This document shows positions 3,422-40,060 of a stretch of 40,060 nucleotides of DNA, piece after piece (position 1 is the stretch's first letter; every line of letters begins with the position of its first letter). Source of the DNA: Escherichia phage IMM-002; sequence record NC_048071.1; one strand, written 5' to 3'. The notes beneath the pieces are model-generated. The model was not told where the DNA came from. It worked only from the letters and a program-made list of their open reading frames with translations, and did not search any database. A program made the position numbers and the translations under genes.

Positions 3422-3496
3422 AAGGTCGAAAGACTCTAAGTCAGGACTGAAGTGAAAGACTTTAGTGATAAGACAACAGTTATAAGGACTTTAAGT

Positions 3497-6178: not shown

Positions 6179-6190
6179 GGAGGCATCTAC

Positions 6191-6391
6191 ATGAAATTCG
6201 CACACAAGCAAACTGGCGTTAAAGGCGGTACTCAAATCGTGACCGTGACCGAGCACAATGGCAAAGGTCTGGTGAAGACCACGGTCATCCCAACCGAGAT
6301 GTCAAAGCAGCTTAACGTCCCATTCAAGTGGCTGGTGAAGCTGGTTCAAGAGCGACACGAGTCAGAACTCCGCGAGGTGGTAACGAAATGA
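6191..6391 (+). CDS. Hypothetical protein
   Basis: 66-aa ORF with strong TAAGGAGG RBS directly after RNAP stop. Confidence 0.55.
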   Translation: MKFAHKQTGVKGGTQIVTVTEHNGKGLVKTTVIPTEMSKQLNVPFKWLVKLVQERHESELREVVTK

Positions 6392-6471: not shown

Positions 6472-6929
6472 TGTTCAACCGTAAACTGAAGGCACGTATC
6501 GCAGCACTTGAAGCAACCATACAGCGTCAGGACCACAACCTTGAGCTGGCTAATCGAGAGCAAGCACGGCTGAGGGCCAAACTACAAAAAGCTGAGACCA
6601 AGCGTGAAGTCGAGCCTTTACGTGTGAAGCGCATGGTCGGCCTGAAGTTCAAGGCGCTGTTCAACGGTATCTACCAGCCGACTGAGTTCAAGACCGGGCC
6701 GGGACCATGTGGAAAGACAGTAACGCACTTCACCACGAGCCGAGACGAGCGGACGCTGACCATCCACCAGCACCATACGGACGAGTCCAGCAAGAGCTTT
6801 GAGTATCGGCTGAGCGACATCGACGGTCGCATCCAGTATGACTACGAGCTGGTGCAGGTTTACGGTGAGGAGGCAGAGCGGGAACGTATGGTCCAAGCCC
6901 TCCGCAACAGACCGCGCTTCATAGCCTAA
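6472..6929 (+). CDS. Hypothetical protein with N-terminal coiled-coil
   Basis: ATG 6472 preferred (GTG 6402 in track overlaps the microprotein); KLKARIAALEATIQRQDHNLELANREQARLRAKLQKAE heptad-like region. Confidence 0.5.
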
Positions 6930-6947
6930 ACTATCACTATAGGATTA
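6925..6947 (+). promoter_or_regulatory. Phage RNAP promoter (phi1.1-equivalent)
   Basis: CTAAACTATCACTATAGGATT, +1 about 6942. Confidence 0.8.
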
Positions 6948-6992
6948 GACTCAAGGTCATGACTCAAAGTCGCGGCCTTCATGATTAACCCT
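6946..6992 (+). promoter_or_regulatory. Conserved stem-loop, candidate RNase III processing site (R1.1-equivalent)
   Basis: TAGACTCAAGGTCATGA...TCATGATTAA; lower stem GGUCAUGA/UCAUGAUU with G-U pairs, upper hairpin GAC-UCAAA-GUC. Confidence 0.5.
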
Positions 6993-7035
6993 GTAGCAAA
7001 GCTACTACCTAACTCATCCAATCAGGAGCTACACC

Positions 7036-7215
7036 ATGTATCAGACCATTATCAACTTCGAGCGCATCCGTGAACGTCAGCAGACTGAAGGCTACATTCC
7101 GAAGGGCCGTAAGCTGAACAAGACAAAGCGTGGCGGTGGCGTGAAGGGTGCTTTCCGTAACGCTGAAGGTAAGGACTCTCTGGTCAACCAAGAGAAGTAT
7201 TTCGTAGGAGCGTAA
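7036..7215 (+). CDS. 1.1: gp1.1-like small basic protein
   Basis: 59 aa (below track cut-off), AGGAG RBS; GRKLNKTKRGGG matches T7 gp1.1 KGRKLNKTKRDRSHKR. Confidence 0.6.
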   Translation: MYQTIINFERIRERQQTEGYIPKGRKLNKTKRGGGVKGAFRNAEGKDSLVNQEKYFVGA

Positions 7216-7217
7216 CC

Positions 7218-7466
7218 ATGAGCAGACGTTGGTTATTCGATGCGTCCACGAGCCAGTGGTCCTCGTTAGGCCGGACACACCGCGAGATGGGTGAATCAGG
7301 ACTTGAGGTCCGAATGGATGAGCTGCCTTGCTCCCGGACAACTCTGGTCAGAATCACTGAAGCAGATGGGAAGCCTCTGGTATCCCGCGAGTTTACCGAA
7401 CATGAAATCTTTAGCTGTGAGCAATGGTGCTTGCAGGTGCTGAACGACTATAGGAGCTGGAAATAA
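7218..7466 (+). CDS. 1.2: gp1.2-like protein (T7 gp1.2 inhibits host dGTPase)
   Basis: 82 aa, position between 1.1 and ligase; C-terminal NDYRSWK resembles T7 gp1.2 YDQLKDWK. Confidence 0.55.
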   Translation: MSRRWLFDASTSQWSSLGRTHREMGESGLEVRMDELPCSRTTLVRITEADGKPLVSREFTEHEIFSCEQWCLQVLNDYRSWK

Positions 7467-8551
7467 TGACTACTACACTCAAGACCAACCCGCATCGCGC
7501 TGTAGATTACTCTGAGTCCGGCGTTAAGAAAGCACTGGACGCAGCCGGGTCGCTGGAAGCTGAAGTGAAGTACGACGGTGTGCGTCTCAACATTCCGGTC
7601 CTTCGTGAAGGTGAGACCTACTGGCTGAGCCGTGAGTCGAAACCTCTGCCAGCCTTGGAGTGGATGAACTCTGAGTTAGGCAATGCTTGGACCCAAGCTG
7701 ACTGGCGCTGGTTCCTGCGTCAAGCTGGCTACGAAGGTGTGGGCCTGATGATTGACGGCGAGGTCATGGTCAAAGGTGTGGACTTCAACACATCCTCAGG
7801 CCTCATCAGAACGAAGTGGCTGAAGCCTAACAACGAGGCGTTCGCTGAATGTTATCCGGGCCGTGGCAAGAAGGTCCCGTTCTGGGTCGCCCGGTCCCGA
7901 CTTCAGGTTGTGGTCTACGGTGTCGTCGACATGACGACCATAGCCGACCCGAAAGCAGAAGGTCCTATCCATAGCGTCACCCGCCTGAAGGCCGAAGCTA
8001 TCGTCCCTCTCCTCCAGAAATACTTCCCGGAAATCGACTGGGTTCTGTCTGAGTCACACACGGTCTTTGACCTTGAGTCGCTCAACTCCCTGTACGAAGA
8101 GAAGCGTCTGGAAGGACACGAGGGTCTGGTAATCAAGGACCCGTTGGGTAACTACAAGCGTGGCAAGAAGTCAGGCATGTGGAAGATGAAGCCTGAGGAC
8201 ACCATCGACGGGACTGTATGTGGCCTCGTGTGGGGGACTCAGGGTAAGGCCAACGAAGGCAAGGTCATCGGCTTTGAGGTGCTGCTGGAAGATGGCATGG
8301 TGGTCAACGCCTGTGGTCTGACCGAGGAGCAGAAGGATGAGTTCACCGCCAAGGTTAAAGAGGACACTCTCGCCGCTGTGGGCATATTTGCTCCGTATGG
8401 TATTGGCGGTAACGAACCCTGCTTCGATAACCCATACGAAGGCTGGCAGGTTGAAGTCCTCTTCATGGAGCGCTTCCCGGACGGCTCCCTGCGCCACCCA
8501 AGTTTCAACCAGTGGCGTGGCACGGAAGACAATCCGACCATTAAGAGCTAA
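7466..8551 (+). CDS. 1.3: ATP-dependent DNA ligase
   Basis: 361 aa; adenylation motif EVKYDGVR, YWLSR, MIDGEVMVKGVDFNTSSGLIRTKW, EGHEGLVIKDP, KRGKKSGMWKMKPE, GSLRHPSF collinear with T7 ligase. Confidence 0.96.
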   Translation: MTTTLKTNPHRAVDYSESGVKKALDAAGSLEAEVKYDGVRLNIPVLREGETYWLSRESKPLPALEWMNSELGNAWTQADWRWFLRQAGYEGVGLMIDGEVMVKGVDFNTSSGLIRTKWLKPNNEAFAECYPGRGKKVPFWVARSRLQVVVYGVVDMTTIADPKAEGPIHSVTRLKAEAIVPLLQKYFPEIDWVLSESHTVFDLESLNSLYEEKRLEGHEGLVIKDPLGNYKRGKKSGMWKMKPEDTIDGTVCGLVWGTQGKANEGKVIGFEVLLEDGMVVNACGLTEEQKDEFTAKVKEDTLAAVGIFAPYGIGGNEPCFDNPYEGWQVEVLFMERFPDGSLRHPSFNQWRGTEDNPTIKS

Positions 8552-8562
8552 CTGAACGTCAA

Positions 8563-8597
8563 CCCAGTGGTCTTCGCGGACTGCTGGGTTTCTTTGT
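8563..8597 (+). terminator. Rho-independent terminator, early terminator TE-equivalent
   Basis: GC-rich hairpin CCCAGTGGTC-TTCGCG-GACTGCTGGG followed by TTTCTTTGTG, directly after ligase as in T7. Confidence 0.7.
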
Positions 8598-8618
8598 GTC
8601 TGGACTCCGGGCCGCTGG

Positions 8619-8641
8619 ACTTAACTATCACTGTAGGACCA
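8619..8641 (+). promoter_or_regulatory. Phage RNAP promoter
   Basis: TTAACTATCACTGTAGGACC, +1 about 8636. Confidence 0.75.
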
Positions 8642-8673
8642 CACCAGGTCCAAGACTTTAAGAGGAGAAACCT

Positions 8674-8928
8674 ATGTCTAAGAACTTAATGTTCAACCGT
8701 TTCAGTCAGACCTTCCACCTGTCACACAATCCGTTCGCTTGCATTAAGCGTAACGAGAAGGTGGGCTTCTTCGGGAAGGCCGTTAAGCTGGCACCTACGG
8801 TCTACGCTCTGATTGTTCCGAGCAAAGTAGAAGAGGCTCGCCAGAAGAAAGAGACCAGTGTACCAGTGGTCTACACCAAGTGGCCTCGCGTTCGTCTGGT
8901 GCTGGAGTTCATCAAGGAGGAGCTCTAA
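8674..8928 (+). CDS. Hypothetical protein (gp1.6 position)
   Basis: 84-aa ORF with GAGGAG RBS after promoter; assignment positional only. Confidence 0.5.
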   Translation: MSKNLMFNRFSQTFHLSHNPFACIKRNEKVGFFGKAVKLAPTVYALIVPSKVEEARQKKETSVPVVYTKWPRVRLVLEFIKEEL

Positions 8929-9305
8929 TGGCTCATTATTGTGTGGACTGTCAGAACGACCATACCGAATGCACCTGCCACCTGAAGTATCAGACACCAG
9001 CGCCAAGCTGTTCGCCAACGTACACTGGTGGGTCTGCCGATTACTACCAAGTGCCTATCACCAAGACTACGACTCCCGGTCGACCGGACTACATCGCTGA
9101 ATGCAACGACATTATCGAGGCTCTCGGTATGAACTTTGCAGAAGGCAATGCGTTCAAGGCCATCTGGCGTCGGGCTGCTCAACGGACCTTAGGTCTGCGT
9201 AAGGCTGGTGCTAAGGACGATGGACTGTATGATGCTGAGAAGGTCGAGTTCTTCGGCGCTCGTCTGGTAGCACAAAGCAAGGCGGCAGGTCATGACTCCA
9301 AGTGA
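8928..9305 (+). CDS. DUF3310-type protein (gp1.7 position)
   Basis: 125 aa from ATG 8928 (track ORF opens at 8880); PDYIAECNDIIEALGMNFAEGNAFKAIWRRA...GLYDAEKVEFF fits the DUF3310 pattern as I recall it. Confidence 0.5.
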   Translation: MAHYCVDCQNDHTECTCHLKYQTPAPSCSPTYTGGSADYYQVPITKTTTPGRPDYIAECNDIIEALGMNFAEGNAFKAIWRRAAQRTLGLRKAGAKDDGLYDAEKVEFFGARLVAQSKAAGHDSK

Positions 9306-9383
9306 ATGGTGCGAGATGATGTTTGAGAAGACGGGTAACGTCGACTATCTCGAAATGTATAACCTCTGGAAAGGGAGAGGACT

Positions 9384-9560
9384 ATGACCATCTATAAGGG
9401 CATCTTCGGGTCTCTGTACGCAGTGAACCAACACGGAGTCGTCTGCGTTAAGCCGGACGGTGGCGAGTGGTGCGCATCACATTACAGTGTCGAGGGATTC
9501 CAAGACGCTATTGATAAAGGCTATGTGACGGAGGTGGTCGATGACCAAGGAGTCAACTGA
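9384..9560 (+). CDS. Hypothetical small protein (gp1.8 position)
   Basis: 58-aa ORF, GGGAGAGG RBS, overlaps gene 2 start. Confidence 0.4.
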
Positions 9561-9711
9561 GAAGAAGTATATCGTGGAACTTGAAGGGCGCGTTCAGTCC
9601 TTTGACGTCCCGGTCTACGCTAAGTCTCTGGACGAGGCGACCCTGAAGGCTCAGGAATATGAAGATGCTGGTTTCGTGGTAGGCCGCATCCGACCTGAGC
9701 TGCACGACTAA
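9541..9711 (+). CDS. 2: Gp2-like inhibitor of host RNA polymerase
   Basis: 56 aa (below track cut-off); [32 protein letters not shown] matches T7 Gp2 [33 protein letters not shown]. Confidence 0.75.
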
Positions 9712-9729
9712 ACTATCACTTTAGGAACA
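9707..9729 (+). promoter_or_regulatory. Phage RNAP promoter (phi2.5-equivalent)
   Basis: CTAAACTATCACTTTAGGAAC, +1 about 9724. Confidence 0.75.
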
Positions 9730-9756
9730 CCTTAACTTTAACTAGGAGATTTACCG

Positions 9757-10455
9757 ATGGCTAAAGAGCAACTGAAAACTTTCACCACTCCGGTCGCTGG
9801 TCTGGTCGAGCCGTATAGCTGGCTGAACAAGTCAGACACCAAGTTCAACGAGCGTGGTGAGCACAAAGTCAACCTGACGTTCGACCTGAGCGACCCGAAA
9901 GTTCGCAAGATGATTGACGTCTTGCAGAAGATTCACGACGATGCGTATGCGAAAGCACTCGCAGACCACGAGAAGAACCCCCCTCAGGTTCAGCGTGGCA
10001 AGAAGCCTATCGAACCGCGTGAAGGCGATATGCCGTGGATTGAGAACGGTGATGGTACTGTTACCCTGAAGTTCAAATGCTTTGCGTCTTACTTGAAAGA
10101 CGGCAAGTCCGAGCCTATCGTATTACGGTTCTACGACACCGATGCTAAACTCATCCGTGACGTCCCGAATATTGGCACCGGGTCTAAGCTGAAAGTCAAG
10201 TTCAAAGTCCTGCCGTTCAAGTGGAACGCTGCGACTGGTGCAAGCGTTAAGCTGCAACTCGAATCCGTTCTGCTGGTCGAACTCAAAGAGTGGTCCGGCG
10301 ATGGTACTGGTGGTGATGGTGGCTGGGGTGACGATGAAGACATCGGCTCCGGTGGCTACAAAGCGTCTACTGACGGTGACTTCGGGTCTGATGACTTCGG
10401 TGAAGATGCCGATGGTGGCGATGACTCTGCGTCCGGTGGCGACTACGACTTCTAA
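9757..10455 (+). CDS. 2.5: Single-stranded DNA-binding protein
   Basis: 232 aa; GKKPIEPREGDMPW, NGDGT, KFKCFASY, WNAATGASVKLQLESVLLVEL and acidic C-terminal tail ending DYDF, as in T7 gp2.5. Confidence 0.95.
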   Translation: MAKEQLKTFTTPVAGLVEPYSWLNKSDTKFNERGEHKVNLTFDLSDPKVRKMIDVLQKIHDDAYAKALADHEKNPPQVQRGKKPIEPREGDMPWIENGDGTVTLKFKCFASYLKDGKSEPIVLRFYDTDAKLIRDVPNIGTGSKLKVKFKVLPFKWNAATGASVKLQLESVLLVELKEWSGDGTGGDGGWGDDEDIGSGGYKASTDGDFGSDDFGEDADGGDDSASGGDYDF

Positions 10456-10910: not shown

Positions 10911-11356
10911 CTAAGCATTTAACGTGTGTTGATTTACCATTTGGTGCTCAGTACAAATTCCACCCTGACGTCATTGAGGCGCACCCAGGACTGAGCACTG
11001 ACACGTATGAGCGTCGGGATAATCACTCGGTTGTTGTAACGGGTCCATTCAAGGGGAACACTGTACAATGGTACGGACATGAGAAGACTCGCATTGTCGA
11101 AGTTGGAAAACCTCAAGTCCTGCCAGCCTCAAGCGTACCGCCTGTGACAGTGAAACGTGAAGTCCTGACCATCGACAAGATTGGTGTGGGTCAGACGTTC
11201 ATCGTTCACGGTAAGCCTGACGAAGTGTACGTGAAGATTAGCAACTCGCACGTCTTCAACCATAAGCGTCTCCAGATGCACACGACTGTAGCAGAGCGCT
11301 TCCAGTCACACCTGAATCTGGTCGTTGTTGAGCTGGTGGTGTACAATGGCAAGTAA
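10907..11356 (+). CDS. Hypothetical protein inserted between endonuclease I and lysozyme
   Basis: 149-aa ORF, ATGA coupling, AAAGGAG RBS; AT-rich codons at 5' end; no T7 counterpart at this position. Confidence 0.55.
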   Translation: MTKHLTCVDLPFGAQYKFHPDVIEAHPGLSTDTYERRDNHSVVVTGPFKGNTVQWYGHEKTRIVEVGKPQVLPASSVPPVTVKREVLTIDKIGVGQTFIVHGKPDEVYVKISNSHVFNHKRLQMHTTVAERFQSHLNLVVVELVVYNGK

Positions 11357-16262: not shown

Positions 16263-16546
16263 TGGCTATTACTAAACGTATTCGTGTGAGTTTTGACCTT
16301 AAGCTGGTTGTGTGTTCCAAGGGCGAGGAAATCTCCTGCCGCAACTTAGCGAAGCTGTCCAAGATGTTCACTGAGGGTGAGAAGCTGGATGGCATCCAGT
16401 TGGCCCTGATTAAGGAAGCAGCAGAGTCTGGACCGGAAGCAGCCCTTGAGCTGGCCTTTAAGAAGTCCATCAAGGAGTCAGTCGTCGAGGCGTTAGACGA
16501 TGAGCCCTTCACTGCTTCAAACTTCCGCTTCGAGGTTAAACGATGA
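16262..16546 (+). CDS. 5.5: gp5.5-like protein (T7 gp5.5 binds H-NS)
   Basis: GTG 16262 after AAGGAG; N-terminus AITKRIRVSFDL matches T7 gp5.5 MAMTKRFKVSFDV. Confidence 0.65.
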   Translation: MAITKRIRVSFDLKLVVCSKGEEISCRNLAKLSKMFTEGEKLDGIQLALIKEAAESGPEAALELAFKKSIKESVVEALDDEPFTASNFRFEVKR

Positions 16547-16752: not shown

Positions 16753-17024
16753 GTCAACAACCTTTGGACTTTCTGGGTCAACCTATCGAAGTTGGCGACA
16801 AGTTCGTCTACGCTGAGGCTGGTGGACGTGGCGGCACAATGGCGCTGCACTCAGGTGTCGTTACCCGCATGACTGAGAAGCAGGTGCTGGTGGAGAAGAC
16901 CCGCTGGGGCCAGACTTGGCGTCCGTTCAACTGCATCGTCATTGTCGAGAAGTGTGGACCAGACGAAGAACCTCTTCTGGGTGCAACCTTAGCTATGGCT
17001 AGAGGAGGTCTCCGGGATGAGTGA
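16749..17024 (+). CDS. Hypothetical protein at the gene 5.9 position
   Basis: 91 aa from ATG 16749 (ATGA coupling, GGAGG RBS); not acidic, no similarity to T7 gp5.9 as recalled. Confidence 0.5.
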   Translation: MSQQPLDFLGQPIEVGDKFVYAEAGGRGGTMALHSGVVTRMTEKQVLVEKTRWGQTWRPFNCIVIVEKCGPDEEPLLGATLAMARGGLRDE

Positions 17025-26299: not shown

Positions 26300-26770
26300 A
26301 TGTATATTCGTAAAGCTACGGAATCAGATGTCCACTACTTTCTCTGGCATCTTTCAGCAGATGATGTTAATGAATGCAAAGCAAACTACGGGTCAACCGT
26401 AGGTCTCTCTGAAAGACTGCTTAAGCATTTATCTCCGTCATCTGTGGTTTTAACGAACGGTGTAGGCGAAGTGTTTGCCTATGGCGGGAACCAAGGGGAC
26501 AACGTATGGTTCTTGACTTCAGGTCAGGTCTACAAGCTGAGACCTAAAGAGAAGAGAGAGTTCATAAAGCGTATCTCTGAGTACAGGGACTTAATGTTAG
26601 ACCAATACGGGACCATCTGGAACTACGTGTGGTCAGGCAATAAGTCTCACATTAAATTCTTGAAGTTGCTGGGCGCTAAGTTTCACCCTGAGGTGACTAT
26701 CAGTCCGGTAACTGGTGAGCGTTTTCAACTATTCACAATCTCTAAGGAGGACGTATGTGCGAACCCGTGA
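26300..26770 (+). CDS. Internal virion protein at gene 13 position
   Basis: 156 aa from ATG 26300 (AGAGGAG RBS; track ORF opens at 26222 through the promoter); lower GC than neighbours; positional assignment. Confidence 0.5.
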   Translation: MYIRKATESDVHYFLWHLSADDVNECKANYGSTVGLSERLLKHLSPSSVVLTNGVGEVFAYGGNQGDNVWFLTSGQVYKLRPKEKREFIKRISEYRDLMLDQYGTIWNYVWSGNKSHIKFLKLLGAKFHPEVTISPVTGERFQLFTISKEDVCANP

Positions 26771-29641: not shown

Positions 29642-32600
29642 ATGGCGACTCGTGGTATTCGCAACAATAACATCGGGAACATTCGTGTTTCCAAAGACCA
29701 GTGGGAAGGAGCTACAGGAGACGATGGGTCTTTCGTAACGTTCGACACTCCTGACTCTGGTGTCCGTGCTCTGGCGAAGAACCTGATGTCCTACGGTCGC
29801 CAAGGTTATGACTCAATCGAGAAGATTATCACTCGTTGGGCACCTCCTAGTGAGAACGACACCCAGTCCTACATTCAGTCCGTGGCTTCGGCTACGGGCA
29901 TCCCGGCTACTCAAAGTCTCGACCTGACGGACCCGGACGTCCTCGCCTCTCTGTCTGAGGCTATCGGCTACCATGAGACTGGCTCCCGCTACGATAAGTC
30001 TGTCTACCAGACTGGCGTGGGCCGTGCTCTTGGGAACGGTATTACCCCAAAGTCTCCACCAGTAAGCGCTAACGTCTTCGACGCTCTCACGGAGGGCTTG
30101 AAGGCGAAACCTAAAGTCGCTCTGGGAGAGAACCTTCCGGGCGTTACTGGTCTGAACATCGAAGGTCAAGAACCTGAGGCTCCCAATGAGTCTTTCGGAG
30201 AGATGTTCTATAAGTCAACTGGCGAGACGCTGGACCAACGGGCTGACCGCTCTACGTGGTTCGGCTTCGGTGGAGCTGCTGAGGCTGAAGTGAATAACTC
30301 TATGGTCGGCGTGGCTATCCGCGCTGGTCAGACCGAGGACTCACTGGATGTCATTGGCGACGTATTCAACCCGACCCGCTGGAACAACCACAAGTGGTCC
30401 CGCGAGGAGTTAGACCAGATTCGTAACGCTGGGGTCCTGCCTCAGTATTACGGAGTCATCACTGGTGGTTCACCTCAGAACCTGACCGAGCTGATTAACT
30501 TGGCGCTGGAGAACCAGAAGTTAGACGCTGAGAAGGCTAAGGCCGGGACTGGCGCTCAACTGGCGGCTGGTGTGATTGGTGCTGGTGTGGACCCTCTGAC
30601 CTACGTTCCTATCGCTGGACAGGTAGGCAAGGGCGGTAAGCTCATCAACAAGATGTTCACCGTGGCTGCTCAGTCTGGTGCGCTTGCTGGGGCCTCCGAG
30701 CTGGCTCGTACTTCCGTTGCTGGTGGCGATGCTCATGTGGCTGAGGCTATTATGGGCGGTGCTCTCTTCGGTGGCGGGATGACTGCTATCGGGGACGCTA
30801 TCGGCAAGGCCCTCGGTAAGTCGACCAATGAGTTCGCTGGTCCAGCTACCCGTCTGGAGGCCCGTGAGACTGCCCGTAACGTCGATGGTCAGGACCTGTC
30901 CCGTCTGCCAATCCGCGAAGGGGAGGAGACCTTCAGTCACCAAGGCGTTAAGTTCGCTGACGTGCCGAATGAGCCGGGAAGTGTTCGACTGGAAGACGGT
31001 TCAATCCTGATTGGTGAGAATCCTCTGAACCCTAAGACACGTCAAGTCTTCGACGAGGTGATTGAGCCTGAACGTGCGGCTGCTGGTGTCAACCTTGGTG
31101 GTCTCACCGAGATTGGCCTGAAGCTCCTGAGGTCTGAGAACCCTGAGATTCGCGGACTTGCCGCTGACTTGGTGCGCTCACCTACAGGTATGCAGTCAGG
31201 TGCGAGCGGTAAGATTGGTACTACAGCGTCAGACGTATTCGAGAGACTTCGTGCAGTGGACCATCGGTTCTACAACGACATCGACGATGCGGTGACTCAG
31301 GCCCTGAAGGACCCGTACTTCCAGACCAACTTTAACCGTGACACTGGCGCATTCCGTCAGGACATCTACCAGCGTGTAGCTCTGGCGATTGAAGATGGAA
31401 GTGGAAACCTGAAGGCTGAGCTGACTCCGGGTGAACTTAAGGTCTATGGCCTGCTGAAGAACCAGTTCGACGCTAAGCGTGAGATGATGGAGAACCCGGC
31501 GATGTTCGGTCGAGTGGACGCTCAGTCTATCTTCCCCGGTAGCCGCTTCAAGGGTACTTACGTGCCTCACGTCTACAGCAACCAGATGAAGCAACTGTTC
31601 ATCAACGAGCTGGGAAGCCCTGAGGCTCTACAGGAGGCCATCAAGAAGTCGTGGCTCACGAGCTATGCTTCCAGACCTGAGGTCAAGGCTCGCGTCGATG
31701 AGGCCCTGCTGGAGGCTAACCCGAACCTGAAGCCTGAGGAACTTGCGGCTGCGGTCGATAAGTATGCCAACGACAAGGCTTACGGTATCTCTCACACCGA
31801 CCTGTTTGAACGCTCGTCTGTCATGGAGGAGAACATCAACGGTCTGGTGGGTCTGGAGAACAACAACTTCCTTGAGGCCCGTAACCTGTTCGATAGCGAT
31901 ATGTCTATCATCCTGCCTAATGGTCAGCCGTTCAACGTGAACAGCCTCCGTGAGTGGGACATGGACAAGATTGTCCCGGCGTACAACCGTCGAGTCAATG
32001 GCGATATTGCTATAATGGCTGGGACCGGGAAGACCACTAAGGAGATGAAGGACACTGTAGAGACCATGATGAACCGTGCTGGCGATGACGGTAAGCTGAA
32101 AGGCGAAGTGGCGACTCTGCGTGATACCCTGAAGATTCTGACTGGTCGTGCTCGACGCGATGGTGCTGACGATGCGGCTTTCTCTACCGTGATGCGGACC
32201 ATGACAGACCTGTCCTTCTTCGCCAAGAATGCCTACATGGGCGTACAGAACTTGACGGAGATTGGCGGGATGCTGGCCCGTGGTAACGTCCGTGCGATGC
32301 TGCATGGTATTCCGATGTTCCGTGACCTCGCCTTCAGAAACAAGAAGATGGGAGCCTCGGAGATTAAGGACCTGCACAACGTGGTCTTCGGTAAGGAGCT
32401 TGACGACTCAATCCGCCCGTCCAAACAGGATGTCATCGACCGTCTGCGAGCGTACAGTGACCTGAGTAAACCTGTAGCTACTGCTTTAGGTTCTGCCAAG
32501 TATTACACTGGTGAACTTGCGGTCCGCTCTCCGTTTACGAAAGTCCTGAACGGGACGACGAACTACCTGTTAGACGCCGGACGTCAAGGCTTCTTGTCTG

Positions 32601-33532
32601 ACATCGTGGAACATAGTCTGACTGGCAGTAAGCGTAAGTTCGATGACCGTTGGTTGAAGACTGCTGGTATCTCCGCTGACCAGTGGAAGGGCATTAAGTC
32701 CCTCATCCGTGAGTCGGTGACTCGTGGTCCAGACGGGAAGTACACCATCAAGGACAAGAAGGCGTTCAGTCAGGACCCAAGGGCTATGGACCTCTGGCGT
32801 ATGGGTGACACCATCGCTGATGAGACCCTGCTTCGTCCGCACAAGCTGAGCAACATGGACGCCAAGGCTTATGGTCCGCTGGCGAAGACTGTCTTGCAGT
32901 TTAAGAACTTCGTCATCAAGTCCATCAACGGTCGAACCATGCGTACCTTCTACAACGCCACCAAGAACAACCGAGCTATGGATGCTGCACTATCAACGGT
33001 TATGTCTATGGGTCTGGCTGGGATGTACTACATGGCTCAGGCGCACATCAAGGCTTACGCTATGCAGGACGGTCGTGACCGTGAGTACCTGAAGCAAGCC
33101 TTGAACCCGACGATGATTGGTTATGCTGCTCTATCCCGTAGCTCCCACTTGGGTGGACCTCTTGGGGTCGCCAACATTCTGGGTGGTATCGCTGGGTATG
33201 AGGACACTAAGTTACTCCGCTCGTCTATCCTTCCGCGCTCACCTACCGAGAAGCCTGAACGTGCCATTACCTATGGTGCTGCGAAGAGTGACCCGGTGAT
33301 GAATGTGGTCGGCAACTTCCTTGAGCAGGTCCCGGCTTTCGGTTATGCTGCTAACGTTGGCGCTTCGGCTTACAACTTGGCTGGCTACCTGAAGTCCGAC
33401 ACCCGTGTGAACGAACGAGACTACATGACCGGGATGTATAACACCTTCCGTGAGCTGGTCCCGAACGACCCTATCACCCAGAAGCTGCTGTTAGGCACCT
33501 TTGAGGAGCAAGGTATTCACATCAAGAACTAA
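29642..33532 (+). CDS. 16: Internal virion protein C/D-like (ejectosome core), with non-T7 N-terminal domain
   Basis: 1296 aa; from about residue 200 collinear with T7 gp16 (TWFGF..AAEAE, TRWN, GAGVDPL, RLEARETARN, RSPTGMQSGASGK, MENPAMFG, KGTYVPHVY, SRPEVKARVDE, DKAYGISH, NFLEARNLFDSD, YNRRVNGDIAIMAG, LRPHK, NNRAMDAALS); first about 130 aa unrelated to the T7 SLT domain. Confidence 0.93.
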   Translation: MATRGIRNNNIGNIRVSKDQWEGATGDDGSFVTFDTPDSGVRALAKNLMSYGRQGYDSIEKIITRWAPPSENDTQSYIQSVASATGIPATQSLDLTDPDVLASLSEAIGYHETGSRYDKSVYQTGVGRALGNGITPKSPPVSANVFDALTEGLKAKPKVALGENLPGVTGLNIEGQEPEAPNESFGEMFYKSTGETLDQRADRSTWFGFGGAAEAEVNNSMVGVAIRAGQTEDSLDVIGDVFNPTRWNNHKWSREELDQIRNAGVLPQYYGVITGGSPQNLTELINLALENQKLDAEKAKAGTGAQLAAGVIGAGVDPLTYVPIAGQVGKGGKLINKMFTVAAQSGALAGASELARTSVAGGDAHVAEAIMGGALFGGGMTAIGDAIGKALGKSTNEFAGPATRLEARETARNVDGQDLSRLPIREGEETFSHQGVKFADVPNEPGSVRLEDGSILIGENPLNPKTRQVFDEVIEPERAAAGVNLGGLTEIGLKLLRSENPEIRGLAADLVRSPTGMQSGASGKIGTTASDVFERLRAVDHRFYNDIDDAVTQALKDPYFQTNFNRDTGAFRQDIYQRVALAIEDGSGNLKAELTPGELKVYGLLKNQFDAKREMMENPAMFGRVDAQSIFPGSRFKGTYVPHVYSNQMKQLFINELGSPEALQEAIKKSWLTSYASRPEVKARVDEALLEANPNLKPEELAAAVDKYANDKAYGISHTDLFERSSVMEENINGLVGLENNNFLEARNLFDSDMSIILPNGQPFNVNSLREWDMDKIVPAYNRRVNGDIAIMAGTGKTTKEMKDTVETMMNRAGDDGKLKGEVATLRDTLKILTGRARRDGADDAAFSTVMRTMTDLSFFAKNAYMGVQNLTEIGGMLARGNVRAMLHGIPMFRDLAFRNKKMGASEIKDLHNVVFGKELDDSIRPSKQDVIDRLRAYSDLSKPVATALGSAKYYTGELAVRSPFTKVLNGTTNYLLDAGRQGFLSDIVEHSLTGSKRKFDDRWLKTAGISADQWKGIKSLIRESVTRGPDGKYTIKDKKAFSQDPRAMDLWRMGDTIADETLLRPHKLSNMDAKAYGPLAKTVLQFKNFVIKSINGRTMRTFYNATKNNRAMDAALSTVMSMGLAGMYYMAQAHIKAYAMQDGRDREYLKQALNPTMIGYAALSRSSHLGGPLGVANILGGIAGYEDTKLLRSSILPRSPTEKPERAITYGAAKSDPVMNVVGNFLEQVPAFGYAANVGASAYNLAGYLKSDTRVNERDYMTGMYNTFRELVPNDPITQKLLLGTFEEQGIHIKN

Positions 33533-33550
33533 ACTATCACTATAGGAACG
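33528..33550 (+). promoter_or_regulatory. Phage RNAP promoter (phi17-equivalent)
   Basis: AACTAAACTATCACTATAGGAACG, +1 about 33545; followed by GGAG-gcttcggt-CTCC hairpin. Confidence 0.85.
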
Positions 33551-33591
33551 GAGGCTTCGGTCTCCACCTATTTTGAATAACAGGAGGTATA

Positions 33592-36390
33592 ATGGCTAAA
33601 ACAACTATCACTCAGTTCCCTGCTGGTCAATCGCAGTATCGAATTGAGTTCGACTATCTGGCTCGACCTTTCGTCGTCGTAACGTTGGTGAACTCCGCCG
33701 ACCAGACGCAGAACAGGGTGCTGAGGGCTGGAGCTGACTATAGGTTCCTGAACCCCACCTTAATCGAGGTTATGATTCCACAGACAGGTTTCGATACCTT
33801 GCAAATTCACCGTCAGACGGACACCGAGCTGATTGTTGGTTTCAGGGACGGCTCAGTTCTTACAGCTAAGGACTTGACAAATGCAGAGCTTCAGGCCATT
33901 CACATCTCGGAAGAGGGTAGGGACCAGACTGTAGACTTAGCGAAGGAATACGCTGACGCTGCCGCCAAAGCGCGAAACGATGCCGAAGACGCCCGTGATA
34001 GCATCGAGCAGGTCATGAAGTCTGGACTGTACGGATACACTCTGGTTGAGGACTTCCAAAAAGGTGCCACATTGTCTCACCCGGCTGAGGCACTTCGCTG
34101 GACACTGCCTGATGGGACGGGAGAATACTACCGCTGGGACGGTGTGTTTCCAAAGGTGGTTCCAGCAGGGTCAACGCCCACATCAGCTGGAGGGGTCGGA
34201 GTTGGTGCTTGGGTATCTATTGGTGACGCATCTCTTCGAGGAAACCTAGCTAACCCAGCCTACGGTGACGGCCTTGTTGCTTCGCAGCTTCCTAACTCCC
34301 CGGTGGCTAGAACAGTCCATGATAAAATGCTAGAAGCTGTGAGCATTGCGGACTATATGGTTGGCGGTGATGTGGCTGGTGCGATAATTGGTGCCCTGTC
34401 CTCCACTGCTGGTCGGGTTAGTGTTCCTGCCGGGAATCACATAGCCACACCTTCCGCAGCGCAAGTGGCTGGCGTACTCTCTGCCCTAAGTAGGCTGAAC
34501 ATTAACGGGTCCTTAACGATTCGTCTCCCTAAGGGAAGGGTTAATCTATCCTCTCCGGTATTGGTGGAGCTGGACGGAGGGAATAACCTAAGCATTGAAG
34601 GACAGCCTAACGTCCCAGTAACCATTACAGGACAAGCGTCTGTCTCTGGGTCTGCTGGAAACTACCAAGTAACCCTTAACGTGTCCTCGACAGCCGGGGT
34701 CTCTGTGGGTGACTTCCTGCATACCAACCAAGCTACAGGCACAGGAGCATGCGACCTTCATCGCGGTGTTTGGGAGATTACCGCTGTTGGGGCAGGGTCT
34801 CTGACTGTCAGGAATACGTGCCAGCTCTCATCCTTCCCGGCTAACACCATAACCTCCAGCTCTAGCCGAGTGCTGACCTCAGTGCTCATGTTTGACCGCT
34901 GCGATGGGTTCATAGTGCCGTCCTCTGAAGTTGGTAACATGAGTAACTTTGTTATCGCAGGTAACTCAGACTCATACTGGAGGGCCTCGGCTGTGGGGAC
35001 TACCGAGCTGGGGACTCATGGTCTGGCTGTAGGCTCAAACACTGTAGCCGTGAACGGTAAGTCAGATAACGTTAACCCTCAAGGTAAGACGGGCGGTAGC
35101 GTGACTTTCGGTCAATACATGGGCGTCTCCGGGTTTGACCAGCAGGGCATTGTTACCGAGCTTGGTGGTAGCTTCTGGGGCGACTTTACTTGCTGCTGTA
35201 ACAACAAGAGACGCGGGTTCTACTCGTCAACTGCATCTGGCATTCGTGCTAAGCAGATTACGGCCAATGGTAACTATCTTGATGGGGTTATTGCGGATAT
35301 TGGCGGAGACATCTACTCGAGCTCTTCTAGCTGCGCCGCAGGTAACGGGTCCTCAGGCATAAGCGCTGCCCATAACGGTTCTGTGATATGGGACGCAGGC
35401 AAGGCCAGCTACAATAAGCTGAATGGTGCCAATGGGGTGGCGGGGGGCTTCCTACAGATGACTGGCTCAACGATGCAGGGTAACTTGGCCACTGGCGCTA
35501 ACCTAGCCTATGGTGCCATCCTCTACTGCGACAACTCCCAGATATCTTTAAACGGAACCTATGGCATTAACTGTCAGCTGGGCTCGGTTGTTCGTGGTCC
35601 TAACTGCACGTATATAGGGAATAACAACCAAGGCATTAGAGGCTCTTACAATGCGACCGTAACCTTTACAGGCTCTACATTCTCTGGTAACTCTGGCGGG
35701 GACTTCCTCTTTACCGCTATGTCTCTTGGCATCTTCGGGAACACTAATTACGGTGGGGATATTGTTGCCACGGACATTAAGTTAGTGAACCAGTCAACTG
35801 GCAAAGGTGTCCGTCTTACTGGGACCTCTGGTGGGGATAACATTGTTATGTCCTATGATGTCACGGGTAATGGGTCCTTTGTCGAGGGTTATAACTTCAG
35901 GTCTGGTGACGTTGGTATCTACCCATCGGATGATGCGGTTCGCAATATTGGACGACCAGCAAACAGGTTTAACATCGGCTTCTTTGCGGGAGGAACACAG
36001 TCTACGTCAGACGCTAGGCTTAAGGACCCTATCAGGGACTTTTCTGAGGCAGAACTCAAGGCGGCTGTCGCCTGTAGTAAATCCTTAGGATTCTGGACTT
36101 GGCTGGACGACGACAGCAAGCGCCTTCATGCAGGGACTACTGTTCAAAGAGTTCTAGAAATCCTAGAGGATAACGGGCTGGATTGGCGTGAGTATGGGTT
36201 CATCGGGTTTGACTCGTGGGAAGATGAGTATAAACCTGTCGTTGCGGAGATTGATGGTATGGAATACGAGACTGGCGAGGTTGTCAAGGTGGTTGAGGCA
36301 GGGTCACTGTGGCAGCTGCGTGACCAAGAGTTTGACAGATTCCTAATCCGTGGACTCTCCGCCCGACTCTCGGCTATCGAGAAGGACTGA
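33592..36390 (+). CDS. 17: Tail fibre / tailspike: T7 gp17-like N-terminal adaptor, Gly/Asn/Ser-rich beta-helix-like central domain, C-terminal intramolecular chaperone (peptidase S74-type) domain
   Basis: 932 aa; N-terminal about 150 aa resemble T7 gp17 ([33 protein letters not shown]); C-terminal [14 protein letters not shown]... fits the SDxRxK autoproteolytic chaperone motif of endosialidase-type fibres; codon usage distinct from rest of genome. Confidence 0.9.
36007..36387 (+). other. Predicted intramolecular chaperone / autoproteolysis domain within the tail fibre (cleavage expected at Ser806)
   Basis: SDARLKDPI motif beginning at codon 806 of the fibre ORF. Confidence 0.6.
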
Positions 36391-36444
36391 CCAGTCGCTT
36401 AACAACTTTGGGTCAAGGACGGCCCGTTTAACAATGGAGGTAGT

Positions 36445-36639
36445 ATGATTGAGTTCGACTTCAAGAATGAGGTCCTCAAAGCCTCGCCTATCGTCGGGAC
36501 CGCTGCGGCTGATGGTGCCAGTCGGTTCTTCTTTGGGTTAACGCTCAACGAATGGTTCTACGTCGCTGCTATCGCGTACACCGTGGTGCAGATTGGCGTC
36601 CTAATTTACAAGACGATTAAGAGCGGAGGTAAGACATGA
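36445..36639 (+). CDS. 17.5: Class II holin
   Basis: 64 aa; KASPIVGTAAADGASRFFFGLTLNEWFYVAAIAYTVVQIG nearly identical to T7 gp17.5. Confidence 0.9.
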   Translation: MIEFDFKNEVLKASPIVGTAAADGASRFFFGLTLNEWFYVAAIAYTVVQIGVLIYKTIKSGGKT

Positions 36640-36899
36640 CGCAGATGGACTTAGAGAAGTTCCTGTTAATGCTGGACACTGAACGTGCTCGACTCATGCT
36701 GCAAGACCTGCGGGATGACTCTAAGCGCTCGCCCCAGCTTTACAACGCCATCGAGAAGCTGTTGGCCCGTCACAACTTTGTGTTGAGCAAGGTGTCGGTG
36801 GACGAGAAGCAGTTGGCTGACATGGAGGCTCTGAACAGAGAGTACGACAAGGTGCTATCAGCTGCCGAAGATAATGACACCGGGTATGGTGTCCAATAA
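36636..36899 (+). CDS. 18: Terminase small subunit
   Basis: 87 aa; FLLMLDTERARLMLQDL, RSPQLYNAIEKLLARHNF match T7 gp18. Confidence 0.9.
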   Translation: MTQMDLEKFLLMLDTERARLMLQDLRDDSKRSPQLYNAIEKLLARHNFVLSKVSVDEKQLADMEALNREYDKVLSAAEDNDTGYGVQ

Positions 36900-36902
36900 G
36901 TG

Positions 36903-36950
36903 TTAGACTCAAGGTCATCTACTACATATAGTGGGTGGCCTTTATGATTA
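36903..36950 (+). promoter_or_regulatory. Conserved stem-loop, candidate RNase III site (R18.5-equivalent)
   Basis: TAGACTCAAGGTCAT-CTACTACATATAGTGGGTGG-CCTTTATGATTAA; same flanking boxes as 6946 and 14035. Confidence 0.5.
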
Positions 36951-37001
36951 ACACTATGCGAGATGCGCTCTCGTGAAATCTGAGAAACAAGGAGGGCAAC
37001 T

Positions 37002-37451
37002 ATGCTCAAACTTTTACGACAGGCCGTCCCTTGGCTGGTGGCAGGACTCCTGTTCTGTTCTGGCTACTGGGTGGCAGACAATAAGTGGGAGGCGAAGGTA
37101 AACAATGAGTACATCACGAAACTTGAAGCAACTGAGCAGTCGAGGCGTTCAGTGCAGTCCGAAGTCAACAAAGTCTCAGCCGAGTGGCAGGACAAGATGT
37201 CCGAGCTGGAAGGCTCTACTGATAGGGTTATTGCTGACCTTAACCGCGATAACAAGCGGCTGCGCGTCAAAGTCAACACCACAGGTATCACCGAGTCAGA
37301 TTACAGTCGATGCTTCCCTGATGGTCGAGTCGAACTACACCCAGAGACTTCTAAAAGTCTTATCCGAATAACGCAGGAAGCAGACCTTAAGGAGAAAGCC
37401 CTTCAGGATACCATACGTAAGCTTCAGCAAGAGAAGGAGGCGAAACCTTGA
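37002..37451 (+). CDS. 18.5: Rz-like i-spanin
   Basis: 149 aa; N-terminal TM ([13 protein letters not shown]), [27 protein letters not shown] and QDTIRKLQ match T7 gp18.5. Confidence 0.9.
37105..37371 (+). CDS. 18.7: Rz1-like o-spanin lipoprotein, embedded in +1 frame within 18.5
   Basis: 88 aa; lipobox-like AITSGC, Pro-rich; aligns with T7 gp18.7 (ISGCAS...VDSSLMVEPN). Confidence 0.85.
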   Translation: MSTSRNLKQLSSRGVQCSPKSTKSQPSGRTRCPSWKALLIGLLLTLTAITSGCASKSTPQVSPSQITVDASLMVESNYTQRLLKVLSE

Positions 37452-39211
37452 GTCAAGACTTAGCGGCGCGTCAGGCGCTTATGACTGCCCGTATGAAGGC
37501 AGACTTCGTGTTCTTCCTGTTCGTCCTGTGGAAAGCTCTGTCCCTACCGGTCCCGACTCGCTGTCAGATTGACATGGCGAAGAAACTATCGGCTGGGGAC
37601 AATAGGCGCTTCATCCTACAGGCGTTCCGTGGTATCGGGAAGTCCTTCATTACGTGTGCCTTCGTGGTCTGGAAGCTATGGAATAACCCGGACTTGAAGT
37701 TCATGATTGTGTCGGCCTCAAAGGAACGAGCCGATGCGAACTCCATCTTCATCAAGCGTATCATTGACCTGATGCCTCAGCTCCAAGAGTTGAAGCCTAA
37801 GCAGGGGCAGCGAGACGCAGTAATCAGCTTCGACGTAGGGCCTGCCAAGCCTGACCACTCACCTTCGGTTAAGTCCGTTGGTATCACTGGTCAGTTAACT
37901 GGTAGCCGTGCGGACATCCTGATTGCCGATGACGTAGAGGTCCCCGGTAACTCAGCGACTCAAGCTGCAAGGGACCGACTGTCTGAGCTGGTGAAAGAGT
38001 TCGACGCAATCCTGAAGCCGGGTGGTACGGTTATCTATCTGGGTACTCCTCAGACCGAGATGACCCTGTATCGTCAGCTTGAGGGTCGTGGTTACTCGAC
38101 TACCATCTGGCCAGCTCGTTACCCGCGTGATGAGAAGGACTGGAAGTCTTACGGCGACCGTCTGGCTCCGATGCTTCAGGCTGAGCTTGAGTCCGACCCT
38201 GAGGGCTACTACTGGCTCCCAACGGATGAGGTCCGCTTCGACGATGAGGACTTGAAGGAACGTGAGCTGTCCTATGGCAAGGCTGGCTTCGCTCTCCAAT
38301 TCATGCTCAACCCGAACCTTGGCGATGCCGAGAAGTACCCGCTGAAGCTGCGTGACCTTATCGTAGCGGACTTGGACCCTGAGTCTAGCCCTATGGTCTA
38401 CCAGTGGCTCCCGAACCTCCAGAACAAGCGTGATGACGTTCCTAACGTGGGACTCATGGGTGACACCTACCACACGTATCAGACTGTAGGTTCTGCTTTC
38501 AGTTCGTACACCCAGAAGATTCTGGTCATTGACCCTAGTGGTCGTGGTAAGGATGAGACGGGTTATGCGGTCCTGTATCAGCTCAACGGCTACATCTTCG
38601 TGATGGAAGCTGGTGGTATGCGCGGTGGCTATGAGGACTCAACGCTGGAGGCTCTGGCGAAGATTGGTCGCAAGTGGAAGGTGAACGAGTACGTCATTGA
38701 GGGTAACTTCGGTGATGGTATGTACCTCGAACTCTTCAAGCCTGTAGCGGCCCGTATTCACCCGGCAGCAGTGACTGAGGTCAAGAGCAAGGGTCAGAAG
38801 GAACTCCGCATCTGCGACGTTCTGGAGCCTATCATGGGGTCTCACCGACTCATCGTGAACTCCTCGACCATTGTGTCTGACTACCAGACTGCTGCTGACA
38901 AGGATGGAGTCCGTAACCCTATCTACTCTCTGTTCTACCAGATGACCCGTATCAGCCGTGAACGTGGAGCCTTGGCACACGATGACCGACTGGATGCTCT
39001 GGCTATCGGTGTACAGTTCTTCGTAGAGTCTATGGCTAAGGATGCCGTGAAGGGCCAGCGTGAAGTTACCGAGGAGTGGCTGGAGGAACAGATGGAAGAC
39101 CCGAAGAAGGGCTTTAAGTCCATCGAGACGGACTACTGGGCCAATGGGGTCCGGGTACAGTTCAATACAGATGATGACTTGGGCTTAGGGTCATACGTTC
39201 AGTTCCACTGA
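37448..39211 (+). CDS. 19: Terminase large subunit
   Basis: 587 aa with TTG start overlapping the 18.5 stop (N-terminus aligns residue-for-residue with T7 gp19); [134 protein letters not shown]. Confidence 0.96.
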
Positions 39212-39871: not shown

Positions 39872-40060
39872 TCTCACAGTTCAAGAACCTCAAGTCTCCC
39901 CATAGGGTCACTCTCAGTCCGACTCAAGGCCCTACCCATAGACCTTCGGTCTAAACCTCAAGTCATTGACCCGAAGTCGCCCCGAAGTCTGGACTGATAG
40001 TGCCTATATCTTGTGGTTGGGACGATTGGTCGGGACTATATGTAGTGCCTCTGAGTCTCT
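39872..40060. repeat. Right direct terminal repeat (DTR)
   Basis: Identical to 1..189; window ends inside or at the end of the repeat. Confidence 0.9.

Follow-up and report, generated by a model that had tools for sequence, protein, structure and literature searches.

The window analysed here is a stretch of 40,060 nucleotides from Escherichia phage IMM-002 (NC_048071.1), and the gene parts described below lie on its plus strand. An ATG-start open reading frame of 932 amino acids (33592–36390) is found between a gp16 homologue (29642–33532) and a holin gene (36445–36639), in synteny with the nearest phage, Pisces. This places it where T7-like genomes encode gp17, between gp16 and the genes for holin and terminase, and its product is the sole candidate receptor-binding protein in the IMM-002 genome. 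A sequence-only reading had described this protein as a fibre of 932 residues versus 553 in T7, and both lengths hold (open reading frame list of the window; PDB 7boz chain length). Gene 17 is driven by a perfect consensus copy of the phage RNA-polymerase promoter, ACTATCACTATAGGAAC, at 33533–33549; ten such perfect copies occur in the window, where chance would give 0.11. The 5' leader (33550–33587), delineated by scanning and by reading of the sequence, consists of a GC-rich hairpin (33550–33565) and an AGGAGG ribosome-binding site (33582–33587). The promoter region is ~100% identical to Pisces and is part of the native backbone. Rfam, tandem-repeat and sigma-70 promoter/terminator scans of both strands from 33300 to 36700 returned nothing above chance, and all minus-strand open reading frames within the gene are of 66 amino acids or fewer. 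An independent metagenomic copy of the gene shows 97% DNA identity, with 16 substitutions and a dN/dS of 0.13. These figures show a real gene that is kept by purifying selection, and the separate copy rules out an assembly chimera.

The N-terminus is formed by a T7-type tail adaptor (aa 1–129; 33592–33978), which matches Phage_T7_tail (PF03906) at aa 13–129 with an E-value of 1.2e-14 and 54.7 bits versus a gathering cut-off of 25.2. T7 gp17 (7boz) aligns at aa 3–123 (E 2e-16). The restriction of T7 likeness to the first ~150 residues, as described earlier, was confirmed, with similarity confined to aa 3–129. An Ala/Asp/Glu-rich neck linker (aa 130–147; 33979–34032) lies between the adaptor and a beta-sandwich domain of the CBA120 TSP1/gp66 type, Tail_spike_N (aa 148–225; 34033–34266). 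The latter matches PF18668 at aa 154–212 (E 5.6e-17, 62 bits versus a gathering cut-off of 25), aligns to CBA120 TSP1 (4oj5) aa 99–171 and is predicted with a pLDDT of ~90. Adaptor, neck and Tail_spike_N align contiguously, end to end over 224 residues, with the solved tailspikes 9vvr_A (843 aa) and 9lna_A (832 aa) at E-values of 1e-80 to 1e-91. An S74-like region is also present at the C-terminus of 9vvr, whereas the central receptor-binding regions of both proteins show no sequence alignment to the IMM-002 spike. At the DNA level, the Tail_spike_N region holds a stretch conserved across genera (~34117–34255), which is 72–74% identical to tailspike genes in 249 records comprising ~45-kb, ~157-kb and ~39-kb phages.

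The exchangeable receptor-binding cassette starts with an N-terminal cap and the first beta-helix coils (aa 226–337; 34267–34602), as judged from the AF2 model and from the closest relatives, whose alignment begins at aa 225–258. A six-stranded closed beta-barrel (aa 338–435; 34603–34896) is inserted within the beta-helix in the model; it carries an HRGxWEI motif, of which G392 and W394 are invariant. Neither this barrel nor Tail_spike_N (aa 154–212) had been mentioned in the sequence-only reading. No match was found for the barrel or the N-cap in Pfam at E ≤ 10 or in NCBIfam. The main body (aa 436–780; 34897–35931) is predicted as a right-handed parallel beta-helix of the pectin-lyase type with an Asn ladder of eight rungs at a period of 23 (N538, 561, 585, 608, 631, 654, 677, 700). 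This model agrees with the earlier proposal of a beta-helix rather than a T7-like coiled-coil fibre. The Gly/Asn/Ser/Thr richness that had been remarked on amounts to 43% of aa 226–805 versus 24% in all other window proteins. Best conserved is the block at aa 508–587 (35113–35352), with residues D516, Q517, Q518, N538, R540, R541, Y544, R552, K554, N561, D564 and D569. Within it, an Asp/Gln/Arg/Lys/Tyr cluster in the middle of the helix (D516, Q518, R541, Y544, K554, D564, D569) is conserved across relatives of 31–76% identity. Some observations count against a beta-helix enzyme. The query scores 23.8–25.2 bits with Pfam Beta_helix (PF13229), under the gathering cut-off of 25.9; this domain is matched at E ≤ 0.01 in 38 of 60 relatives. 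No catalytic residues could be assigned in the beta-helix, which offers a conserved charged cluster only; the sequence-only reading had likewise identified no catalytic motif by eye. Moreover, activity or substrate has been demonstrated in no member of the beta-helix family.

The beta-helix is followed by a pre-cleavage segment (aa 781–805; 35932–36006), the predicted C-terminus of the mature spike, which aligns to the residues of T5 pb1 ahead of S1264. Its monomer pLDDT is low (55–58), as expected if the segment is interleaved in a trimer. The remainder is a Peptidase_S74 intramolecular chaperone (aa 806–932 and stop; 36007–36390) that matches PF13884 at aa 806–862 with 32.7 bits versus a gathering cut-off of 22. 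The S-D-x-R-x-K pattern is present as SDARLK at aa 806–811, placing the catalytic Ser806 (36007–36009) five residues ahead of Lys811 (36022–36024). In the alignment with T5 pb1 (4uw8; E 2e-27), homology extends out to aa 930, K811 pairs with K1269 and S806 pairs with an Ala in place of S1264; 4uw8 is the S1264A mutant of T5 pb1. The family profile matches the chaperones of K1F endosialidase (3gw6, E 1e-36) and phi29 gp12 (3gud, E 8e-37), and Foldseek retrieves 4uw8 and 3gw6. The domain had been proposed from the letters and is borne out here, with the catalytic Ser/Lys pair in place; the chaperone is predicted to leave as a 127-aa fragment by autocleavage.

The beta-helix part has no relative above 40% identity in the phage database, and its family is small, with 317 cluster representatives among 1.84 billion. 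The same cassette of cap, barrel, beta-helix and S74 domain occurs at 37–42% identity in a prophage tail fibre (WP_236920167.1) and in the tailspikes of Sashavirus 536P12, Phapecoctavirus 536P1 and Justusliebigvirus VEcB/alia, all of which differ from IMM-002 gp17 in their N-terminal anchors. The prophage protein is encoded by the ETEC strain FORC_031 and by 15 further E. coli genomes, two of which carry the label O6:H16, and is 72% identical to IMM-002 over the pre-cleavage segment and 71% over the chaperone. Hosts of these relatives are linked to O6 and K15. However, a shared specificity is not implied, because identity is only 37–42% and the distal beta-helix (aa 588–780) is not alignable by itself to them. 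In the case of VEcB and alia, a receptor other than the O-antigen, e.g., a K antigen, was suspected by Pas et al. For 536_P1, LPS is the reported receptor and K15 a mask, which counts against the glycan interpretation favoured below. The family also extends to Leclercia and to a record labelled Pseudomonas putida, and one carrier is P22-like, with a backbone that resembles E. coli and Salmonella phages only in fragments. When the DNA of the receptor-binding domain was compared with 5,426 complete E. coli genomes, the chaperone segment alone was matched, at ~70% identity; the ETEC prophage protein was reached from these matches by protein-level comparison only. A family-alignment scan of species-representative bacterial genomes gave 117 pattern matches that held no true relative, so no host inference was drawn from it. 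The literature on ETEC-TG, VEcB and Sashavirus receptors and on CS3 with O6:K15:H16 yielded nothing useful.

Among known systems, the Kayfunavirus single enzymatic tailspikes (K1F endosialidase gp17, CLB_P1, Bas105 ElsieAttenhofer and Pisces) occupy the same position after gp16 and before the holin, and resemble IMM-002 gp17 in their T7-type adaptor at the N-terminus, in their exchangeable receptor-binding domain at the C-terminus and in being the single spike of the genome. The Pisces spike carries an SGNH hydrolase where IMM-002 has a beta-helix. K1F gp17 likewise ends in an S74 chaperone, but its catalytic domain is a sialidase beta-propeller, whereas the IMM-002 domain is a beta-helix of the pectin-lyase type into which a barrel is inserted. 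A K1F-type endosialidase (GH58) was rejected on this basis: there is no propeller match in Pfam, and the chaperone alone is in common. The nearest chaperone systems are the T5 L-shaped fibre pb1 (4uw8), the Klebsiella phage Kp7 fibre (7y5s), 3gw6 and phi29 gp12 (3gud), and the parts upstream of the chaperone in T5, Kp7 and K1F are unrelated to the IMM-002 spike. The earlier likening of the chaperone to those of K1F and T5 holds, and the resemblance to K1F goes no further. T7 gp17 has a shaft and a small C-terminal tip domain after its adaptor; a fibre of this type was rejected as well, given that T7 similarity stops at aa ~124 and the rest is a beta-helix spike in the model. The nearest beta-helix structures are Staphylococcus phage Andhra gp15 (8egr), the mannuronan epimerases AlgE4/AlgG (2pyg, 4nk8), the alginate epimerase/lyase 8ja4, CBA120 TSP2/TSP3, and the Klebsiella K1 (7w1c) and K5 (2x3h) lyases. 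Identity to them is 10–16%, the aligned parts are the repetitive coils, and the catalytic residues of these enzymes could not be mapped onto IMM-002, whose spike may be a hydrolase, a lyase or a binder.

The explanation we favour, at a probability of about 0.7, is that IMM-002 gp17 is a modular, homotrimeric, glycan-binding and probably glycan-cleaving tailspike, matured by S74 cleavage and recombined into a Pisces-like backbone. IMM-002 is a Kayfunavirus-type T7-like podovirus with gp17 as its only receptor-binding protein. The T7-type adaptor would anchor the spike in the tail, followed by neck and Tail_spike_N, and the beta-helix with its inserted barrel would bind, and probably cleave, a host surface polysaccharide. 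As its substrate, the K15 capsule and the O6 O-antigen, both belonging to the O6:K15:H16 ETEC clone, come first among the candidates. The S74 domain would chaperone trimer folding and then remove itself by Ser806/Lys811 autoproteolysis, leaving a mature spike of 805 residues. Of this picture, the open reading frame with its domain order and fold, the Ser/Lys pair, the recombination breakpoints, the shift in codons, the shuffling of the cassette and purifying selection are shown, whereas trimer formation, self-cleavage, enzymatic action and the glycan as substrate are inferred.

The experiments published on IMM-002 speak for a protein receptor and against this explanation. An anti-CS3 monoclonal antibody blocked plating of IMM-002 in a dose-dependent manner, and purified CS3 at 500 µg/ml neutralised the phage. 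No blocking or neutralisation was seen with antibodies to CS1, CS2 and CFA/I or with the matching purified antigens, and O6 strains with CS17 were not lysed (PMC6301781). The CS3 specificity of both effects and the resistance of the CS17-expressing O6 strains favour direct binding of the beta-helix spike to CS3 fibrillae, which are built of protein subunits, as the original paper concluded. In variants of this idea, the pectin-lyase fold serves as a protein-binding scaffold or CS3 as a first, reversible attachment site. Any CS3 binding must sit in the tailspike, because the genome offers no other candidate receptor-binding protein. We nevertheless regard this alternative as unlikely, since glycan-active tailspikes typically show such a fold, an Asn ladder and a conserved charged cluster of this kind, and members of the family turn up in Leclercia, in phages isolated on UPEC 536 and in other phages or prophages of hosts not known for CS3. 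In addition, the screen in the CS3 paper did not separate CS3 from serogroup O6, the two being fully confounded, and the paper reports neither an isogenic CS3-negative mutant nor heterologous CS3 expression (PMC6301781). By our own reasoning, the antibody could hinder access sterically by cross-linking the dense, flexible fibrillae, and a CS3 preparation could carry capsule or LPS. A spike that binds polysaccharide as a catalytically inert, pure adhesin appears improbable in view of the sharp conservation of the mid-helix cluster, and the Kayfunavirus spikes characterised to date have been described as enzymatic.

The recombinant origin of the spike gene is reflected in its codons. The rare AGG/AGA, CTA/TTA and ATA codons noted earlier are enriched: AGR accounts for 18 of 42 Arg codons in the gene versus 64 of 592 elsewhere (p = 5e-7), and bias was likewise found for CTA+TTA (p = 0.005) and ATA (p = 0.013). 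A likelihood test that conditions on the amino-acid sequence ranks gene 17 as the most atypical among 24 genes (z = -9.5, next -4.5). The shift does not cover the whole gene as had been stated: codons 1–36 are native (z = -0.3), and atypicality begins at about codon 37 (z = -2.7 for codons 37–124). Identity to Pisces drops to 72–76% from about nt 33698, and DNA similarity stops at 33963. The right recombination boundary lies at 36391–36399, with ~98% Pisces identity back at 36400, nine bases past the stop. Codon ~37 to the stop, nearly the whole gene, is foreign to the Pisces-like backbone. Since codon atypicality and Pisces divergence both start at ~codon 37, most of the T7-type adaptor was also imported, and not the host-range module alone as first proposed. 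Several short early genes are also rich in AGR, CTA and ATA codons, yet amino-acid composition or low expression as the cause is largely refuted, as the test is already conditioned on the amino-acid sequence, the shift starts exactly at the drop in Pisces identity, and the remaining outliers (26300–26770 and 37002–37451) are the sole other late genes diverging from Pisces (66–68% identity). Horizontal acquisition is hence supported by codon shift and Pisces breakpoints, while its "recent" date was not borne out. The exchange probably proceeded through conserved junction sequences common to tailspike genes of unrelated phages. Overall, the sequence-only reading stands with these corrections and additions; an absent S74 domain, a T7-like fibre and ordinary codon usage, named beforehand as outcomes that would contradict it, were each looked for, and none was observed.

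IMM-002 has been proposed as a virulence-factor-targeting ETEC phage with CS3 as receptor, and the sugar-enzyme-like shape of its spike fits poorly with a protein fimbria. If the CS3 assignment is true, gp17 would, to our knowledge, be unusual among beta-helix tailspikes in using a fimbrial protein as receptor, and this would explain virulence-factor-specific predation of ETEC. If the sole receptor-binding protein is instead an O6:K15-directed glycan depolymerase, the basis of specificity and the therapeutic rationale would change, and resistance would be expected via capsule or LPS mutants, not via CS3 loss. Should the receptor be the GlcNAc-Kdo K15 capsule, the CS3 assignment would be overturned and gp17 would found a family of K15 (Kdo-capsule) depolymerases as its first member defined by sequence. 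The gene is also a compact test case, with a precisely delimited swapped region on a backbone otherwise close to Pisces, and it points to a small beta-helix family without a characterised member.

The tailspike gene (33592-36390, +) encodes a product of 932 aa, as first proposed, compared to the 553 aa of T7 gp17; it is 100% identical to the IMM-002 'tail fiber protein' YP_009812899.1. A perfect consensus copy of the phage RNA-polymerase promoter ACTATCACTATAGGAAC precedes it (33533-33549, +), followed by a hairpin and an AGGAGG ribosome-binding site. Ten copies of this promoter are present in the window versus 0.11 expected by chance; all ten match the consensus with 0-3 mismatches and lie on the + strand (3404, 6930, 8624, 9712, 18012, 20831, 21787, 26243, 33533 and 39311). 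The gene has no rival on the opposite strand, where ORFs within it reach 66 aa at most. In the gene region, Rfam and tandem-repeat scans gave zero matches, and scans for sigma-70 promoters and terminators gave nothing above chance. Taken with the protein match and a shared length of 40,060 bp, exact direct terminal repeats of 189 bp (1-189 and 39872-40060) identify the window as the whole genome of Escherichia phage IMM-002 (NC_048071).

Similarity to T7 gp17 is confined to the N-terminus, as the sequence-only reading had stated: T7 gp17 matches at aa 3-123 only, and Pfam places Phage_T7_tail at aa 13-129 (54.7 bits, cut-off 25.2). Two tailspikes of known structure with a T7-type anchor, 9vvr and 9lna, align over aa 1-224, and Tail_spike_N was assigned to aa 154-212 (62 bits, cut-off 25). 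An AlphaFold2 model of aa 148-932, based on an alignment of 60 sequences, reached a mean pLDDT of 90.4. In this model, a small beta-sandwich (Tail_spike_N) is followed by a low-confidence linker, a cap with the first coils, a domain insertion built of long antiparallel strands, a highly regular beta-helix, a low-confidence segment of ~25 residues and a helical/beta chaperone domain. The beta-helix had been anticipated, the Tail_spike_N domain and the inserted barrel overlooked. At aa 584-711 the Pfam Beta_helix profile scores slightly below its cut-off (23.8 versus 25.9 bits). The helix carries an Asn ladder of eight rungs (N538, N561, N585, N608, N631, N654, N677 and N700) that recurs every 23 residues and follows an N-x3-G pattern. 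The noted richness in Gly, Asn, Ser and Thr amounts to 43% in aa 226-805 versus 24% in the window's other proteins.

The C-terminal chaperone was likewise recovered as Peptidase_S74 at aa 806-862 (32.7 bits, cut-off 22), with S806 and K811 of SDARLK coinciding with the catalytic positions in T5 pb1. In the alignment to 4uw8, S806 falls on Ala and K811 on K1269; we take 4uw8 to be an uncleavable mutant with Ala in place of the catalytic Ser. T5 pb1 (4uw8) and the Kp7 fibre (7y5s) match at aa ~775-930, and the family profile matches the chaperones of K1F endosialidase (3gw6, E 1e-36) and phi29 gp12 (auto-chaperone 3gud, E 8e-37). Likeness to K1F stops at the chaperone. Since the homology of relatives without S74 ends at aa ~794-813, i.e., at the predicted cleavage site, the chaperone is a separable module. 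By homology, autocleavage would yield an 805-aa mature chain and a 127-aa fragment.

The genomic backbone is that of a Kayfunavirus, with Escherichia phage Pisces ~95% identical across 10000-33500. Identity to Pisces is ~97% until ~33697 (codon ~36), drops to 72-76% until 33963, is undetectable over 33964-36399 and returns at 98% from 36400, nine bases past the stop codon. Pisces instead carries a 913-aa SGNH-type spike at this position. Codon usage shifts at the left breakpoint, being unremarkable in codons 1-36 (z = -0.3) and atypical everywhere downstream. A codon likelihood test that conditions on amino-acid sequence ranked the tailspike gene as the most extreme of 24 genes (z = -9.5); AGR accounts for 18/42 Arg codons versus 64/592 elsewhere (p = 5e-7), CTA+TTA and ATA are likewise enriched, and GC3 is the lowest among all large genes. 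The rare codons noticed earlier are confirmed. Breakpoints and codon shift support horizontal acquisition, though not necessarily a recent one, with an import that spans nearly all of the gene rather than the host-range module alone.

Codon outliers besides the tailspike gene are limited to 26300-26770 (z = -4.5, 68% aa identity to Pisces) and 37002-37451 (z = -3.2, 66%), and no further late gene diverges from Pisces. The former (+) encodes a 156-aa internal-virion (gp13-like) protein, has the second most atypical codons (AGR 4/7) and lies in surroundings otherwise 93-100% identical to Pisces, suggesting a second, small patch of mosaicism. The latter (+) is the i-spanin gene and contains a +1-frame ORF (37105-37371, +) with a lipobox-like LTAITSGC, likely the o-spanin. 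Seven short early/middle segments lack DNA homology to Pisces (926-1338, 2723-3155, 7231-7462, 9388-9558, 10912-11164, 16288-16520 and 16769-17015), and the product of 887-1339 is just 35% identical to the Pisces SAM hydrolase, showing that mosaicism extends beyond the tail gene.

An independent copy was found in a metagenomic contig (Logan SRR14509871) with 97% DNA identity over 30592-37364. Its tailspike differs by 16 substitutions (dN/dS 0.13). Between the two copies (window 33592-36390, contig 3001-5799), dS is uneven, at 0.15 for aa 1-225, 0.04 for aa 226-805 and 0 for the S74 domain, which hints at further intragenic recombination among close relatives. Between spanin and large terminase, this sister phage carries an additional HNH_3 endonuclease ORF of 145 aa (contig 6856-7293, ~window 37364-37493), missing from the window and probably a homing endonuclease insertion.

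Homologues of aa 226-932, the exchangeable receptor-binding part (RBD), share 31-76% identity and sit behind several different anchors, including T7-tail, P22 head-binding, tail-collar and Tail_spike_N domains. At 74% identity stands the product of gene 9 in a P22-like phage, and at 71% a free-standing tailspike from an SP6/K1-5-type podovirus, encoded downstream of its terminase. The latter contig encodes a 304-aa T7-tail adaptor (2518-3432) and a separate 711-aa spike (8001-10136) with the terminase between them, illustrating an alternative mounting of the same module. Deposited phages reach at most 37-40% identity (Sashavirus 536P12, Justusliebigvirus VEcB and alia, Phapecoctavirus 536P1 and phage ETEC-TG). 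Within Tail_spike_N, the stretch ~34117-34255 is 72-74% identical in DNA to tailspike genes of 249 records, including phages of ~45 kb, ~157 kb and ~39 kb, in agreement with the anchor-end motifs for which Pas et al. (PMC10408124) proposed a role as hotspots of recombination between genera.

The RBD family is small: of 1.84 billion 50%-identity clusters, 317 have a representative that matches at E <= 1e-3 and 69 one that matches at E <= 1e-30. No solved structure or named activity was found for any member. Conservation peaks at aa 508-587 (D516, Q517, Q518, N538, R540, R541, Y544, R552, K554, N561, D564 and D569), and the distal coils (aa 588-780) are variable. The conserved part may thus form a catalytic or structural core, the distal part carrying specificity. 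Three cysteines (aa 534-536, nt 35191-35199), C536 alone being conserved across the family, directly precede the invariant NNKRRGFY motif. A prophage of E. coli FORC_031 encodes an 866-aa 'tail fiber domain-containing protein' of the same RBD+S74 family (3790-6390 of the chromosomal segment), 39% identical over aa 232-923 (E 6e-144) and 71% in the chaperone; its gene adjoins holin, GH19 endolysin and DUF2514 genes. Sixteen complete E. coli genomes (FORC_031 and 15 others) carry the prophage protein, two of them labelled O6:H16, and phages named after strain 536 also carry family members.

Virion proteins except gp17 are at least 92.9% identical to those of Pisces, the single exception being the 156-aa internal protein. 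Because Pisces nevertheless came from a different strain, E. coli 4s, the host specificity of IMM-002 must, on these comparisons, reside in the tailspike. Pectin-lyase-fold spikes normally recognise, and often cleave, polysaccharide. A single enzymatic spike directed at O or K antigens is a known trait of Kayfunaviruses. The published receptor is instead a protein, the fimbrial colonisation factor CS3. All 83 CS3-positive ETEC tested were lysed by IMM-002, CS17-expressing O6 strains were not, an anti-CS3 monoclonal antibody blocked plating, and purified CS3 (500 ug/ml) neutralised the phage, CS1, CS2 and CFA/I antibodies and antigens being without effect (Chakraborty et al. 2018, PMC6301781). 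The authors concluded that CS3 is the receptor; the tail fibre gene was outside their analysis, and all 83 strains were serogroup O6 (PMC6301781).

The K15 capsule, (→4)-α-GlcNAc-(1→5)-α-Kdo-(2→), is reported as an enterotoxigenic K type frequent with O6 and a mannose-resistant hemagglutinin, and its cluster occurs in ETEC F8316/41 (O6:K15:H16), ETEC FORC_031 and UPEC 536 (PMC7387560). Because of this association, CS3 is confounded with the O6(:K15) clone in the host-range screen. The hemagglutinin in question is CFA/II (CS1/CS2/CS3). The family members in the FORC_031/O6:H16 prophage and in strain-536 phages are suggestive only as a receptor link; with identities near 40% and a distal helix not alignable on its own, these relatives may differ in specificity from the IMM-002 spike. 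Phage 536_P1 reportedly uses LPS as its receptor, K15 serving as a mask.

We favour a glycan, K15 or O6, as the primary ligand of the spike, at a probability of about 0.55-0.6. A two-step or non-enzymatic mode takes up what the other readings leave. Direct binding of CS3 by the spike would account for the antibody and neutralisation results, but in view of the fold and the clonal confounding we consider it unlikely.

The initial description and interpretation hold up, subject to the four refinements given above. The tailspike is of a well-known kind, horizontally exchanged and equipped with an S74 chaperone; it is more than a routine case in that its glycan-enzyme architecture conflicts with the published protein receptor, a conflict open to direct test.
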